Under the pieces are notes generated by a model that ran no database searches, was not told the DNA's origin, and was given only the letters and a program-made list of their open reading frames with translations. 64,000 nucleotides of DNA from Nitrososphaerales archaeon (GTDB taxonomy: Archaea > Thermoproteota > Nitrososphaeria > Nitrososphaerales > UBA213): contig JAWCSA010000002.1 of NCBI GenBank assembly GCA_038868975.1, positions 8,059-72,058 on the forward strand, given 5' to 3'. The stretch's first letter is position 1; each line of letters begins with the position of its first letter. The translations under genes and the position numbers were made by a program. Below, piece after piece: positions 1 to 10,854 of this stretch.

Positions 1-1800
1 CCTTCGGAACCAATGCAAACCTTTATTATTTTTTCGTAACTCTTGCAACACATTTACAGCAAACTTTTCTAGTCCTCTTTTCTTAATATAATCCTCGAAT
101 ATTAGTTTTAATAGTCCTCTAACTGAATCAGAAAGGTCATTATCTGATTTTATATATTCGTCAGTATCTGCATAAACTAAGGTCACGGCGTTGTTAATGT
201 CGGGTAGGGTTCCACTACAGATCCACTCAGTCCATAGTAGACGCATCTGAAATAATAGTTCGTCAACAAATTCTCTTCCGTCGTTAAGCATGCATAATTT
301 CCTCCAATCTCTGTATGTGAAACCTTCGTATCTTTCTGCCAATAGCAAAAATTGTCTACGCAACCAATATACTGTAATTTTATTATGTCTCATCTGGTCC
401 AGAACATCATTTCTAAATCGTTCAAGACCTTTTTTTTGTACATACTCTAGTAGTATCAATGTCGCTATTCTTGATACCTCACTTCTTCGTTTATCAGAAG
501 CCGGTTGACTCTCTGATGAGTAAAAATCAGAGGTGTGATGCAAGTAATACTGAATTAGTTTCCATGAATTCCAATTAATTAATACACCGTTAGCTGAATT
601 TGCAGTCTGGAACAATTCCACATAATCGTCGAAAGTCAATAGATTTTCTTCTACCATTTGAATCATCAGTCTCCGTACACTATTCTGAGCTGTTTTATCG
701 GAGATTATATCTTTCTGAATAGTAGTAAATTGTTTTTTCTCAAGTTTCGCTTCAGCATATTTAGCTATATTATAAGCGGTTTTTAATGATCTAGGTGATA
801 TTTTTCGTACCTCTGTCTGATAAATATAATATAATTTTGGAGATGCCCCCCTTTCCTTTCGAAAAGGATATAATCTGCTATAGTCGTGACCTGTAGATAT
901 AGAATTAAGCAAAGAATATCGTGGATTCCTATCCTTTACAATCATTTTTTCAAGCTCATCTTTCAGACCATTTCTTACAGATTTCCAAAGAAACATTAGG
1001 GCGGAATTCGGTACTTCTTCAATCTTGCAATCTGGAGATGTACCGGAGTTAGTAAATTTCCATACAAATAGTGATGCACCTAGTGGTAAGTCATCACGCA
1101 TATCATGCAAGTAAGCCATTACTCTTCTGATAGCAGCTACCGAACCTTCCTTAGATCCCAATGTCTCCACTACTCCTGCAGAGATTCTTTTCTGAACTTC
1201 ATTGACTATACTTTGTACTAGACCATACCAGAATTGTTGTGATGTAGATTGGAAAACTACGAGACGTCCATCAAGTAACATAGTGCCCAATGGTAGATAA
1301 TGCACAGCAAACAGGCATTTTGCACATATATTCGGGGACCTAGACGCTGATGGAAGTGCCTGTGCGTCACTACCAAGACTACCAGCCAATGGAAACCAAT
1401 CGCGACCAACAGCTCTAAAATTATCTTTTTCACCTAGTGGTACCAGAGTTTTTCTTGCAACCACATCGAGATCAAGACTCCTTTCATTACCACAAGCCTC
1501 GCATCTTTCATGGATAGTTTCATTTCCAATATTGTTAAGAAATGCAGTCGTCATAGCGCTATAAATTTCAATTTTCTTTTTCTTTTGTTTCTTGGATGGG
1601 TGCGTGATCAGAGAATTAATTGTGAAAATCATACTAGTGCTTTTAAAAAGTGAATTCCAATATGCTATTCGTTGCCCATGACCATGAACTTTTACTAAAT
1701 GATCGTATGTAAGTTCATCTATTTTATCCAAGCCCGCTAAGGTGGCTATTACTCCTAGACCAGTATCGACAAACGGGTTTCCAGTAAGTTCGATCTTCAA
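1..1800 (-). CDS. cas8a1: CRISPR-associated large subunit, Cst1/Cas8a1-like (CXXC-CXXC family); 3' end runs off the window
   Basis: Absent from the ORF track because its stop lies left of position 1. My manual minus-strand translation from TTG (1800..1798) stays open to the edge. It reads MKIELTGNPFVDTGLGVIATLAG... and has two CxxC pairs (CEACGNE, CAKCLFAVHY). It lies directly downstream of cas6. Confidence 0.55.
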   Translation of the reverse strand, partial: MKIELTGNPFVDTGLGVIATLAGLDKIDELTYDHLVKVHGHGQRIAYWNSLFKSTSMIFTINSLITHPSKKQKKKKIEIYSAMTTAFLNNIGNETIHERCEACGNERSLDLDVVARKTLVPLGEKDNFRAVGRDWFPLAGSLGSDAQALPSASRSPNICAKCLFAVHYLPLGTMLLDGRLVVFQSTSQQFWYGLVQSIVNEVQKRISAGVVETLGSKEGSVAAIRRVMAYLHDMRDDLPLGASLFVWKFTNSGTSPDCKIEEVPNSALMFLWKSVRNGLKDELEKMIVKDRNPRYSLLNSISTGHDYSRLYPFRKERGASPKLYYIYQTEVRKISPRSLKTAYNIAKYAEAKLEKKQFTTIQKDIISDKTAQNSVRRLMIQMVEENLLTFDDYVELFQTANSANGVLINWNSWKLIQYYLHHTSDFYSSESQPASDKRRSEVSRIATLILLEYVQKKGLERFRNDVLDQMRHNKITVYWLRRQFLLLAERYEGFTYRDWRKLCMLNDGREFVDELLFQMRLLWTEWICSGTLPDINNAVTLVYADTDEYIKSDNDLSDSVRGLLKLIFEDYIKKRGLEKFAVNVLQELRKNNKGLHWFRR

Positions 1801-1806
1801 TAATTA

Positions 1807-1944
1807 ACTTAAGTTTGACGGTATATAAGTCTCTTTTCCGAACAACGTGGCAAGATAACTGACCACCGGTGATACTACATGTGGCCGTTGGGGTTTAAAA
1901 GCACCGCTAGAGGAATTTTGCTTTATATACAGCCAAACTTCAAT
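1807..1944. mobile_element. MITE-like nonautonomous element related to the IS at 9591..10854
   Basis: Left end ACTTAAGTTTGACGGTATATAA matches the IS left IR ACTGAAGTTTAACGGTATATAA at 20/22. The right end (reverse complement ATTGAAGTTTGGCTGTATATAAAGC) matches at 19/25. It is flanked by direct AATTA at 1802..1806 and 1945..1949. Confidence 0.45.
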
Positions 1945-1980
1945 AATTAAAATATTAGGAATGGATCGATTTTATTTTTT

Positions 1981-2826
1981 TCATGTAAAAGGTACGCATC
2001 TTACAACTCCAAACCCTGCTGTTCTATCCGAACCAATATTTGAGTATTCAGCAAGGCTTGCAAGTAAGCTTGTAACTTTACACCAATTATTATCATCCTT
2101 CATTCTGTAGGCAGTCCATCCTACAAAGCCTATCTTCCTTGACTTACCATTTACAGTTAGAGTTCTCAGCTCATGCCCTGAAACTCCAACATTATCTTTA
2201 ACCCATTCTTTATACTCTTTATGCGCTTCCTTCCCGAACTGCTTATAGTTTGACATGCATGAATCCCAGATGCGCATAAGGTTAGGAAATATCATTATAG
2301 GATCTGGAAATAACTTATCGAATTTAGAACCTATTGTTGAGAAGTGTGTTGGCGTCTTGAAATAAAGTCTAAATGTTTCAATACTTGAATTTTCGGAAAT
2401 TAACTTGGCAAAATCCTTTGACTTTATGTTCACAGATGATATGTAGAAGGGAGCATCTAGGATCATCACTTTGTTATTTTCATTAAAATAATCTATAGCA
2501 GTCTTGACTAAAGCATCATTTAGAAATCTAATACCAAAAGAGCAAGGATATGATTTGTCCAGAATATACCCCTCCTTCAACTTTTGAATAGACCTGAAAC
2601 GAAGCGGGGTAACTGAATAAGGTTTTACCACATTGGGCTCATGTAATTTTTGTGAAATTGATGGATCTACCTGCCTTAGCATGTGCAACATCAAACCTCT
2701 TGAAATATAACCAGTAAACGAGGGCAGTAAAACTCCCTTCTCCGCAAACATCTTCAACTCAAGTTCAAATGGCAACTCAATCACTTGTGTAAAAATAGTA
2801 CTTGCTAGTCTTTTAAGCTTTAACAA
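1981..2826 (-). CDS. cas6: Cas6 CRISPR RNA endoribonuclease
   Basis: 281 aa. Central LHEPNVVKPYSVTPL block and a C-terminal glycine-rich loop NIGSDRTAGFGVV, both typical of Cas6. It is followed by the Cst1-like gene. Confidence 0.75.
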   Translation of the reverse strand: MLKLKRLASTIFTQVIELPFELELKMFAEKGVLLPSFTGYISRGLMLHMLRQVDPSISQKLHEPNVVKPYSVTPLRFRSIQKLKEGYILDKSYPCSFGIRFLNDALVKTAIDYFNENNKVMILDAPFYISSVNIKSKDFAKLISENSSIETFRLYFKTPTHFSTIGSKFDKLFPDPIMIFPNLMRIWDSCMSNYKQFGKEAHKEYKEWVKDNVGVSGHELRTLTVNGKSRKIGFVGWTAYRMKDDNNWCKVTSLLASLAEYSNIGSDRTAGFGVVRCVPFT

Positions 2827-7747: not shown

Positions 7748-8572
7748 ATGATATCAAAACAAATATCGCTAAGTCACGTGGAGCAGACGGTATACTTTCT
7801 TAGCCTAAGGCTTGGCAAGAGAATAGTTAACACTGATTTTATATCTTCCCATTTACACATTTCCAAAAATTATGCTAAAGATCTGCTTTACAGTTTAGCA
7901 AAGAAGGATGCAGCTGTTAAGCTTGCAAAGGGTACATACCTGCTTGTGCATCCAGAGATCTTATACGGCAGGAAAGGCTTCAGTGAAGACCCATTATTAA
8001 TAATCGATGAGTTTATGTCTGAACTGGAAAGAAGTTACTATGTAGCATACATAAGTGCAGCAAATCTGCATGGTATAGCACATCAACTGCCATTCACCCT
8101 TCATGTAGCGGTAACAAAAAGAAGGAGAAACATTAGAGCATCTGGAATATCTATAAGGTTTGTAACTGTGAAAAAGGATAGATTCTTTGGCATCCAAGAT
8201 ATGAAATACTCTGACAGAAAACTGAAGGCATCAGATCTTGAAAAGACCGTACTTGACTGCTTGGAAAGGCCAGAGCTTTGTGGTAGTATTAGCGATGTTG
8301 CAGTGATGATCTACGATTCTGCTGAAAGGATAGAATGGAAGAAATTAGTTGATTATGCAAAGATGTTTAACAATAGAGCACTTCTGCAACGGTTAGGCTG
8401 CATATTGGAAAAACTGATGCGTCAAGGATTGAATGTAGATAAAAAAGTAGTTGCAAGTCTACATAAGCTGTTGGATAAAAAATTCGTTTATCCGCTAGAG
8501 CCTAAGCTACCCAAAAAGGGGAAGTTGAATCGTAACTGGATGATAATTGAAAATGTCAAGATAGTGAAATAA
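7748..8572 (+). CDS. abiEi: AbiEi-like antitoxin / transcriptional regulator (type IV TA)
   Basis: 274 aa with an N-terminal wHTH-like region. It lies 2 bp upstream of a DUF1814 nucleotidyltransferase gene, the classic AbiEi-AbiEii arrangement. Confidence 0.65.
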   Translation: MISKQISLSHVEQTVYFLSLRLGKRIVNTDFISSHLHISKNYAKDLLYSLAKKDAAVKLAKGTYLLVHPEILYGRKGFSEDPLLIIDEFMSELERSYYVAYISAANLHGIAHQLPFTLHVAVTKRRRNIRASGISIRFVTVKKDRFFGIQDMKYSDRKLKASDLEKTVLDCLERPELCGSISDVAVMIYDSAERIEWKKLVDYAKMFNNRALLQRLGCILEKLMRQGLNVDKKVVASLHKLLDKKFVYPLEPKLPKKGKLNRNWMIIENVKIVK

Positions 8573-8574
8573 AG

Positions 8575-9579
8575 ATGCTAGATATCACACAGCGAATGTT
8601 AAGGAACTGGGCCGATGAAGTAGGAATTTCTGACCTATCATTGGTTGAGCAAGATGTTAGAGTTTCCTATGCATTAAAGGAAATCACTGAGAACGATCTT
8701 CTGAGGCCTCTTTTATGCCTAAAAGGTGGTACGGCGATAAACAAGCTTTATCTCAAGGATACCTCAAGGCTTTCAGTCGATCTAGACTTTAATCATTTGG
8801 GAGATAAGGATACGGTTGCAAGGCAAAGACCAGATGTAAGAAAGGAGATCATCAGCGTACTTGCTAGGAGCGATCCAAACTACCAGTTCACAATCACAAG
8901 GAGAGACTGGTATCAAACCACCATACAAGCCGTATACAAACCCTTATTTGGATTGCCTAGCGCAAGGCTGAAGATTGAGGTTTCCCACGTAGAAAGGTTC
9001 CCAATACTCAACACCAAAATAAGACCATTCAAGTTAATTGATTCAGGAGAATCATGCAACGTTAAGACATATTCAATAGACGAACTTGTATCAACAAAAT
9101 TACGAGCCTTATTCACAAGAGCTAGAGGAAGAGATATTTACGATATACATCAGGCAAGTGGGATACATCTGAATAAAAAACTTGTAAGGAAGATGTTCAT
9201 CTACTATCTTTTCAGGGTTGGCAAAGCGTATAATTCAAAACTTGATTATAACAAATTGAAAGAAAGATTAGATAAGAAACAGTATGTCGATGATGTTACC
9301 GGTTATATCAGACAGGGAATCCACTTCTCCTTAGACAGGGCTGCTATGACCCTAGCTAAGAACTTGCAGTTTCTTAACAAGCTAGATGAATTAGATCAGA
9401 ATTTTCTGTTGCTGGCAAGGAAACTGAAAGGGGAGGCGATACCTAAAGTTAGAATTAATGTTATAGGCAACATTAAAAATCCATTAAATTATATTTTTCA
9501 AGACACGGCTATTACGCAGCAAGCTAGAAAGGTAACTGTTGGGGACATAGTTCCTTGGCAACAACGCAAAAGGTTCTAG
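8575..9579 (+). CDS. abiEii: AbiEii/AbiGii-family nucleotidyltransferase toxin (DUF1814)
   Basis: 334 aa. LKGGTAINKLY...RLSVDLDF is the hallmark NTase block of AbiEii. Confidence 0.75.
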   Translation: MLDITQRMLRNWADEVGISDLSLVEQDVRVSYALKEITENDLLRPLLCLKGGTAINKLYLKDTSRLSVDLDFNHLGDKDTVARQRPDVRKEIISVLARSDPNYQFTITRRDWYQTTIQAVYKPLFGLPSARLKIEVSHVERFPILNTKIRPFKLIDSGESCNVKTYSIDELVSTKLRALFTRARGRDIYDIHQASGIHLNKKLVRKMFIYYLFRVGKAYNSKLDYNKLKERLDKKQYVDDVTGYIRQGIHFSLDRAAMTLAKNLQFLNKLDELDQNFLLLARKLKGEAIPKVRINVIGNIKNPLNYIFQDTAITQQARKVTVGDIVPWQQRKRF

Positions 9580-9590
9580 AATGATCTTTT

Positions 9591-10854
9591 ACTGAAGTTT
9601 AACGGTATATAAACAAAATTACGGAGAAAGTAAGTGATTTTGGATAGGAACGCAAATTGATCTGATGCTATAATCTTATTATTGCATGCTTGCTCTTGAT
9701 GCAGCGGCATGGCTTAAAGAATATACGAGCAGGTTGAGTTTGAGTTACAATCAGCAGAAACTGCTTGCCAGGTATGTTACTGGTCTGATCGCTTCTACTA
9801 ACAAAACAGTATCTGGCATAAGTTCGATATTCATAAAGCAGAGCAGGATATCCATGAACAGGCTGATGACAGAATGCCCATGGGATACAAGCAAGGTCAA
9901 TATGGAGAGGCTTGAGGAACTGCAGAAACATAATGAGACCAGATGGAGCAAAGATGGCATCCTTATCATCGATGATACCATAATGGAGAAGGAAGGGAAG
10001 GAGATACCGTACGTTGGAAAGTTCTACGACCATTCGCAGAACAGATTCGTTGATGGACACTGCATTGTAAGCACACACTATGCTGACCATAAGACAAGTT
10101 ATGCGATAGACTACAGGCTCTATCTGAAGAAGGGCAACGATGGGTTCAAGACAATGATAGAACTGGCGAAGGAGCTCATAGAACAGTACAGGTTCTTTAT
10201 ACCCGCACGAACGCTCGTATGGGACACGTGGTATACGTGTAAGGAGATGGTAGAGTATGTGGAAGGCATGGACAAGTTCTGGATAGGTGCAGGGAGGTCA
10301 AATATGCTTGTCAAGGTTAACAGGAAATATGTCACGGTTGAGGAATGGGCAGATTCCATAGACAGCAAAAAGTTCCATGAAGTAGAGGTTAATGAAAGGA
10401 AGTTCAGGTGTATAACAAACATCTGTACGTAAAGAGCCTCAATTGTTTCAAAAGAGTGGTAGTATCAGTTGCTGATAACGATAAGAAGGATAGGATCTAT
10501 CTGCTCACGAACTGGAGTGACCATGTGAAGAAGATTATAGCAGATTATATGCTGAGATGGAAGATAGAGAACTTCCACAAGGATGCAAAGCAGCACCTCG
10601 GCTTAGGAAAGGTACAGCTCAGGAACATAGAGGGTATCAAAAAGCATTGGTACCTTGTCTTCCTGGCCCATTCCCTACTGAGGCTTGGTGTTAGAGTCAT
10701 CCTTCGGAAGGACTCTGATACGGAGCATAGGGTGGAGAGTGAGAAGCGTATGTATAGAACTGCTGGAAGATTTCATCTCTTGGATCGTGAGCTCGGGTAA
10801 TCAGAACAAGGTGCATGAAATCATGGAGGTGTTTTTATACCGTTAAACTTCAGT
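9591..10854 (+). mobile_element. IS701/IS4-like insertion sequence (1264 bp) with 25-bp terminal inverted repeats
   Basis: Left IR 9591..9615 is ACTGAAGTTTAACGGTATATAAACA. The right IR 10830..10854 matches it at 24/25 when reverse complemented. I could not see a target-site duplication. Confidence 0.8.
9686..10800 (+). pseudogene. DDE transposase (IS701-like) split by a frameshift near 10396..10430
   Basis: ORF 9686..10432 has ILIIDDTIMEKEGKEIPYVGKFYDHSQNRFVDGHCIVSTHY. ORF 10408..10800 has YMLRWKIENFHKDAKQHLGL. The catalytic residues are therefore split across two frames, and no obvious slippery heptamer is present. Confidence 0.7.

Follow-up and report, generated by a model that had tools for sequence, protein, structure and literature searches.

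The left end of the window (the whole 64,000-nucleotide stretch of DNA that was analysed) lies within a type I-B cas effector module. The genes of the module are arranged in the order cas6-cas8b-cas7-cas5-cas3, with a fused HD-helicase Cas3, and the assignment to type I-B rests on PADLOC profile matches to Cas8b (1.7e-38), Cas7b (2.9e-41), Cas5b (1.4e-67) and Cas3b (7.6e-188). A cas4 gene, a PaREP1-domain gene, cas2, cas1 and csa1 are located downstream on the strand opposite to the effector genes. The large subunit had been labelled Cst1/Cas8a1-like in a preliminary description; Cst1-like is a fair name for it, but the PADLOC scores favour Cas8b of type I-B over Cas8a1. The locus is accordingly of type I-B and not of type I-A. 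All cas ORFs are intact and of full length when compared with their relatives. Near this complete cas locus, no CRISPR array was detected in the window (1-64000) or in L121 (1-20804); the contig sequence searched starts after the first 359 nt of the record.

The predicted TTG start of cas8b is genuine: an in-frame TAA lies two codons 5' of it, with a single TTA codon in between, which leaves the TTG as the only possible start, and the Cas8b N-terminus MKIELTGNPFVDTG is kept in homologues. Upstream of this start, a spacer of 180 nt separates cas8b from cas6. The spacer holds a short segment with inverted ends, and its features are listed in Table 1 together with those of a related IS further along the window.

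Table 1. Features at the cas6-cas8b junction and the related IS, with positions in the window.
Feature	Position	Strand	Remarks
cas8b (Cst1-type large subunit, 657 aa in full)	1..1800, start TTG at 1800, continues beyond window start	-	profile and homologues
Target-site duplication TAATTA(A), cas8b-proximal copy	1801..1807	.	
Non-autonomous MITE-like element	1807..1944	.	inverted ends, IS-end matches, absence from L135 and L136
Left terminal inverted repeat CTTAAGTTTGACGGTATATAAG	1808..1829	+	cas8b-side end; core 18/18 identical to left end of L143 IS
Candidate replacement TATA box TTATATA, outward-facing, in left inverted repeat	1822..1828	-	-28..-22 from cas8b TTG
Right terminal inverted repeat TTGAAGTTTGGCTGTATATAAA, read inward	1922..1943	-	cas6-side end
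Duplicated TTG AAG followed by TTT GGC TGT ATA TAA, a 6-codon mini-ORF	1923..1943	-	putative significance
Target-site duplication TAATTA(A), cas8b-distal copy	1944..1950	.	
Conserved A/T box AAAAAATAAAAT, candidate ancestral cas8b promoter	1969..1980	-	directly after cas6 stop
cas6 (267 aa as called; open frame up to 2826)	1981..2784	-	
IS701-family (ISRso17-like) IS, pseudogene, ends CTGAAGTTTAACGGTATA	9592..10853	+	

The segment measures 136-138 bp, since a few bases at the junctions can be counted either as element or as duplication: its limits may be placed at 1808-1943 with a 7-bp duplication, at 1807-1943 with 6 bp or at 1807-1944 with 5 bp. A repeat search returned inverted arms at 1811-1828 and 1923-1940, each of 18 nt, which are 89% complementary and 94 nt apart. 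The longest ORF touching the segment encodes 23 aa, and the segment is thus short (below about 500 bp) and devoid of a transposase ORF, as expected of a MITE. When treated as RNA it folds into a hairpin of its terminal inverted repeats (TIRs), with a free energy of -37.9 kcal/mol and a z-score of -2.6. Its 90-nt interior (1831-1920) was not met a second time in the window or in L121 and L143, and it had no similarity to the IS of the window or to those of L141, L142 and L143 (see below), and no matching family in Rfam. The exact element was found as one copy in about 79 kb of sequence from the source population.

Terminal repeats and related mobile elements

The origin of the inverted ends was investigated with a consensus of the IS ends, GAAGTTTAACGGTATATAA, which was searched across the 64-kb window allowing up to three mismatches. 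Exactly four matches were obtained, two at the ends of the element and two at those of the IS, where 0.01 were expected. None of 100 shuffled sequences reached four matches, and a looser pattern led to the same outcome. The preliminary description had proposed a MITE-like element with IS-derived inverted repeats and had given identities of 20/22 and 19/25 between repeats and IS ends; both counts were correct when repeated by eye, and the similarity goes well beyond chance. The left repeat core agrees at 18/18 positions with the left end of the L143 IS (Table 1) and at 17/18 with the window IS. At the right repeat, the likeness to the left ends of the IS copies continues subterminally through TATATAAAG-AAAATT. 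Both ends of the element resemble left ends of the IS, rather than one left and one right end.

The IS in the window probably belongs to the IS701 family and is ISRso17-like, a group that occurs in Nitrososphaeria with ends CTNAAGTTTRACGGTATA. Its DDE transposase is split into two ORFs, and the profiles with the highest scores for these fragments are the NCBIfam IS701 models and Pfam DDE_5. The IS701 model was the best match for both ORFs, at 127.9 and 59.3 bits; each falls below the cut-off of 150 because the gene is split. Intact relatives, which JGI names SRSO17 transposase, have a length of 385-390 aa and the same Pfam domains. The closest comparison was provided by L141, an intact 387-aa relative on an IS-sized contig with 83.6% nucleotide identity to the window IS. 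When compared with L141, the window IS lacks 1 nt near 10406 and 2 nt near 10694; both losses shift the reading frame, and the IS is therefore a pseudogene. Its flanks have only TTA in common, and in two sister MAGs, GCA_038869435.1 and GCA_038870035.1, it is inserted at an identical position. Directly upstream of it, at 7748-9579, lies an AbiEi/AbiEii gene pair (toxin-antitoxin or abortive infection), and the abiEii stop codon is separated from the start of the IS by 13 nt.

A second IS copy from the same population was found on another contig, in a sister MAG (L143, 2910-4169; GCA_038856265.1, JAWCHE010000032.1). It shares 79% nucleotide identity with the window IS and has a transposase gene broken into three pieces, but of the two copies it is the one whose end is closer to that of the MITE. 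A further IS with flanks, in L142, is 70% identical to that of the window. Both IS copies seen in the source population are thus pseudogenes, and neither provides a compatible active transposase. The homologue search turned up no intact transposase of more than 82% identity, the nearest one (82%) coming from another sample, and for this reason the element is probably immobile now. While its past mobilisation is implied, mobility at present is unlikely.

Further elements of this kind were sought by scanning a JGI metagenome set, in which the source organism is not included, with the two-ended pattern. The scan returned four short elements with the same ends, with 129-140 bp between the repeat cores and with unrelated interiors. 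Two of them (L128, 66-205, and L130, 4637-4776) are copies of one MITE family of about 146 bp including the tips, whose interior differs from that of the window element; they lie at different loci of metagenome Ga0073934 and in opposite orientation. The copy in L130 is bordered by a clean, non-palindromic 6-bp duplication, GAATAA. In viral contigs the two-ended pattern gave no match. A scan of genome contigs (596 Gb) was carried out with the over-degenerate pattern AAGTTTRRCKGTATAWAA and gave at least 120 matches, mostly due to chance; among the matches listed, only one was related. This match (L009, 452-857) is an element of about 400 bp in the Nitrosopumilales MAG CAZLZM010000004.1, with one perfect family end adjoining TAATTA and a degenerate second end; its identity to the IS, over the first third of the latter, is 71%. 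From its sequence, it looks like an internally deleted IS and a possible intermediate towards a MITE. More distant relatives (L146-L149; transposase P0253, 45% identical) have other ends, CTGACCTTTTACCCCTTATATAC, which again contain TTATATA at about 16 nt from the tip. The ends of this IS clade thus seem to have a TATA-like motif as a conserved component, which may serve as the transposase promoter.

Empty sites and the target duplication

Orthologous loci were identified by means of Cas8b homologues in L135 (85% protein identity) and L136 (83%). Homologues of Cas6 were of no use for this purpose, as identity fell to 58% for the nearest one from outside the population and the cas contexts were different ones (N. 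gargensis, type I-D). The two genes are separated in L135 by a 37-nt spacer without insert, between the end of cas6 at 1280 and the start of cas8b at 1318, and the insert is absent from L136 as well. Subtraction of 143 nt from the spacer in the window likewise leaves 37 nt, which equals the spacer of this closest relative and agrees with the ancestral length of about 37 bp that had been estimated beforehand. In the alignment, the window corresponds to the empty site plus 143 bp, that is, the element and one copy of the duplication, and the region is therefore an insertion and not a native spacer. The junction in the relatives reads ...TATTTTATGTA ATGAAGAT... and ...TATCTCAGTTA TTGAAGATCGAAC... 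In L136 (1-93), the cas6 frame appears to be longer and to extend through much of the spacer, with its stop at a distance of only about 14 nt from the cas8b TTG. The place where cas6 stops is thus not conserved, although the sequence of the A/T box is.

The insert was present, without differences, in all eight of the contigs with an identical Cas8b. These carriers comprise the NCBI MAGs GCA_038869295.1 (contig JAWCRL010000004.1) and GCA_038856265.1, as well as Logan assemblies of several runs, and they showed 0 mismatches over 210 nt in four contigs and over 4974 nt in three. Within the population as sampled, the insert is thus fixed, whereas the nearest relatives lack it. With terminal inverted repeats that match an autonomous IS, a target-site duplication and an empty site in related genomes, the segment is best explained as a short non-autonomous (MITE-type) derivative of an IS701-family, ISRso17-like IS.

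The flanking direct repeat, CTTCAATAATTAA, is located at 1795-1807 and 1938-1950 and takes in the cas8b start codon. An AATTA duplication had been described at this site and is present at 1802-1806 and 1945-1949, but the direct repeat as a whole comprises 13 bp and not 5 bp. The most suitable reading of its sequence is a target duplication of 6-7 bp, TAATTA(A), extended by 6 bp through an identity of the element tip with the flank, the tip TTGAAG (read inward) being the same as the native cas8b start TTG AAG. The probability that this extra identity arose by chance is about 2-5 in 10,000. That targets resembling an element end are favoured, as the cause of the identity, is possible but unsupported. 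A 13-bp target duplication with a truncated element end was also considered and was rejected: all other members of the family include the three bases before AAGTTT (consensus CTN) in the inverted repeat, and the duplication in L130 is a clean 6 bp. On either side of the L143 IS stands TAATTA, and together with the GAATAA of L130 and the TAATTA adjoining the L009 element, this suggests that the family makes duplications of about 6 bp and appears to prefer TAATTA-like targets.

Promoter geometry and the fate of cas8b expression

The spacing of putative promoters was analyzed for 53 long ORFs in the window by recording at which distances A/T-only 6-mers precede the first start codon. These 6-mers peaked sharply at -36..-28, with a mode at -30 (14 of the 53 ORFs) over a background of about 2, and 10 of the 53 had one starting at -28. 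An archaeal TATA box is centred about 26-27 nt upstream of the transcription start. As the A/T-box peak lies at a fixed distance from the start codons, the mRNAs of this archaeon would mostly be leaderless or near-leaderless. Strict TATA words gave too few matches for such a count. Promoter weight matrices, derived by Gibbs sampling in two attempts, were unstable because the start codons are uncertain, and they were too noisy to score the site.

The A/T box that follows cas6 reads GAAAAAGATAAATC in both L135 and L136. Before the insertion it was located at -37..-26 from the start of cas8b, and it now lies 143 nt further upstream; in the three lineages in which it is kept, it starts at -37..-31. 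The place that the cas8b start formerly held relative to this box is now occupied by the mini-ORF. The left end of the element is separated from the TTG at 1800 by 6 nt on the minus strand, and the outward-facing TTATATA at 1828..1822 (minus-strand sense) is found at -28..-22, both as given in the preliminary description. Its start at -28 falls within the native peak but is 2 nt closer to the gene than the native mode, so that initiation could fall inside the start codon. The A-rich GGAAAAGAGAC stands just before the box, and an A-rich stretch or RAAAG likewise precedes several of the native boxes. No Shine-Dalgarno-like sequence or ribosome-binding motif was seen in the sequence before the cas8b TTG.

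Two consequences of the insertion for transcription had been put forward. A break in the cotranscription of cas6 and cas8b found no support, as the longest T run on the sense strand of the element is 4 and the only hairpin is that of the TIRs. The idea that the element supplies a TATA box agrees with the native-like spacing (-28 against a mode of -30), but the native spacer already contains a conserved TATA-like box. The likely effect would therefore be the displacement and replacement of a promoter, and not the gain of a new one. That the TIR box took over as the TATA box of cas8b is plausible from its position, with a likelihood close to even or slightly short of it. The position of the motif may also be incidental here, since the motif is built into the transposon ends even in distant relatives.

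Taken as a whole, the insertion of an IS701-derived MITE, combined with a candidate promoter replacement before cas8b, is in our view the probable explanation of the locus. The element transposed into an AT-rich TAATTA target with duplication of 6-7 bp, inside the 37-nt cas6-cas8b spacer of the type I-B operon of an uncultured Nitrososphaerales archaeon and between the conserved A/T box and the TTG. The ancestral A/T box would have been the promoter of a nearly leaderless cas8b-cas7-cas5-cas3 transcript until the insert displaced it 143 nt upstream. It now faces the duplicated TTG AAG that opens the 6-codon ORF, and the real start would lie behind 143 nt of hairpin-forming RNA. The outward TTATATA at -28..-22, at native spacing, might then take over as TATA box, effector expression might be roughly preserved, and the element itself would now be a stranded fossil. 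A more general version, which we consider unlikely, would have the family as such be self-compensating: its ends would have a TATA box at a fixed distance from the tip, and its transposase would prefer TAATTA-like targets, which are typical of the region from TATA box to start codon in leaderless archaeal genes. Wherever a core promoter was hit, the insertion would then restore one with close to native spacing. If so, such elements could settle before essential or defence genes without silencing them.

A disruptive or neutral insertion would account for the same arrangement, with a silent TIR box and with cas8b expressed either by read-through from cas6 or from the displaced box, across a 143-nt structured leader with a 6-codon decoy ORF. 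Expression would then be reduced or the system would be decaying. This outcome is somewhat doubtful. The ancestral box is intact and now stands before the duplicated TTG AAG of the 6-codon ORF, the element folds into the TIR hairpin as RNA (-37.9 kcal/mol, z -2.6), and the real TTG has no preceding Shine-Dalgarno-like sequence; in addition, neither the window nor L121 contains a CRISPR array, and insertions of IS and MITEs that disable cas loci are documented (PMC10359306). The native-like spacing of the TIR box and the A-rich GGAAAAGAGAC upstream of it, as found for several native boxes, argue against a silent box. The full-length cas ORFs point in the same direction, but this is weak evidence, since all carriers are identical and too little time may have passed since the insertion for the intactness of the cas genes to indicate tolerance.

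The element could also have arisen in place, from a full-length IS that inserted here and was then internally deleted, so that the solo relic never moved as a small unit. The single copy in about 79 kb of the source population fits such a collapse, and so does the internally deleted derivative of a related IS, of about 400 bp, in another genome (L009); it is nonetheless improbable, because the 90-nt interior is unlike the window IS and the IS copies of L141, L142 and L143, which are 70-84% identical to the window IS, and because both ends resemble IS left ends. The other short metagenome elements, which join such ends to unrelated interiors and include one family with two copies, also speak for movement as a small unit. 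A native intergenic regulatory hairpin with a coincidental likeness to IS ends would explain the hairpin itself and nothing more. It is refuted by the empty sites in L135 and L136, and its probability is further reduced to practically nil by ends that match four IS copies (window, L141, L142 and L143), four metagenome elements and the L009 derivative, by the target duplication and by the lack of an Rfam match.

The IS701 family usually makes 4-5 bp duplications, whereas those seen here are of 6 bp (GAATAA, TAATTA) and the MITE encodes nothing. Outward-reading promoters are found in the ends of IS and MITEs, for example as bacterial hybrid promoters and in Correia elements. The element resembles these in that insertion has set a candidate promoter element in a terminal repeat beside a host gene. 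It would differ from the bacterial cases, judging from its geometry, as an archaeal TATA box for a leaderless mRNA that replaces a displaced box at nearly the same spacing. In Sulfolobus, the MITEs SM1-SM4, SM3A and SMN1 are mobilised in trans by IS transposases (Redder et al., 2001, cited in PMC3718332), and SM3A persists after the decay of its partner transposase ISC1058 (PMC3718332). The window element is like these MITEs of about 80-320 bp: it is short and without an ORF, it has terminal repeats copied from a resident IS and a short target duplication, and it can outlast a decayed partner transposase. It is unlike them in its Nitrososphaerales host and in its IS701-family (ISRso17-like) partner, in place of ISC1058 or ISC1733 (PMC3718332), and it further differs in an interior unrelated to the IS and in its single copy in about 79 kb of the source population. 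IS and MITE insertions into cas genes are known to inactivate them (PMC10359306). The present case shares with these a mobile element within a cas operon, but the insertion lies between genes, none of the ORFs is damaged, and a promoter element of its own may have come with it. The element works like the classical archaeal MITEs of Sulfolobus, and it adds to the known IS and MITE insertions in cas loci. A quick literature search on MITEs in Nitrososphaera returned nothing relevant, and nothing usable was found in the literature on thaumarchaeal start sites and IS701 duplications.

The analysis documents an IS701-type MITE family in Nitrososphaeria and a clean pair of insertion and empty site within a type I-B cas operon. 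As it stands, the case is an ordinary mobile-element insertion with an attractive candidate regulatory reading, and a promoter replacement by the element, while plausible, would be neat but not unusual. If the terminal repeat acts as a new TATA box, this would be a natural case in which the end of a transposon has replaced a promoter, in an archaeon whose mRNAs are leaderless, and it would offer a handle on cas effector transcription in a lineage without a genetic system.

The distance between element ends and neighbouring genes was also compared across the family. At 2 of the 16 element ends examined, the start of a long ORF lies 10-11 nt beyond the repeat core, namely that of cas8b (10 nt) and that of a gene called with 131 aa in L142 (1381-1410), which is 11 nt past the repeat core of the related IS and has a geometry near that of cas8b. 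The case of L142 is one more hint towards a self-compensating family. The shared geometry could be due to chance, or such ends could often come to lie in front of genes.
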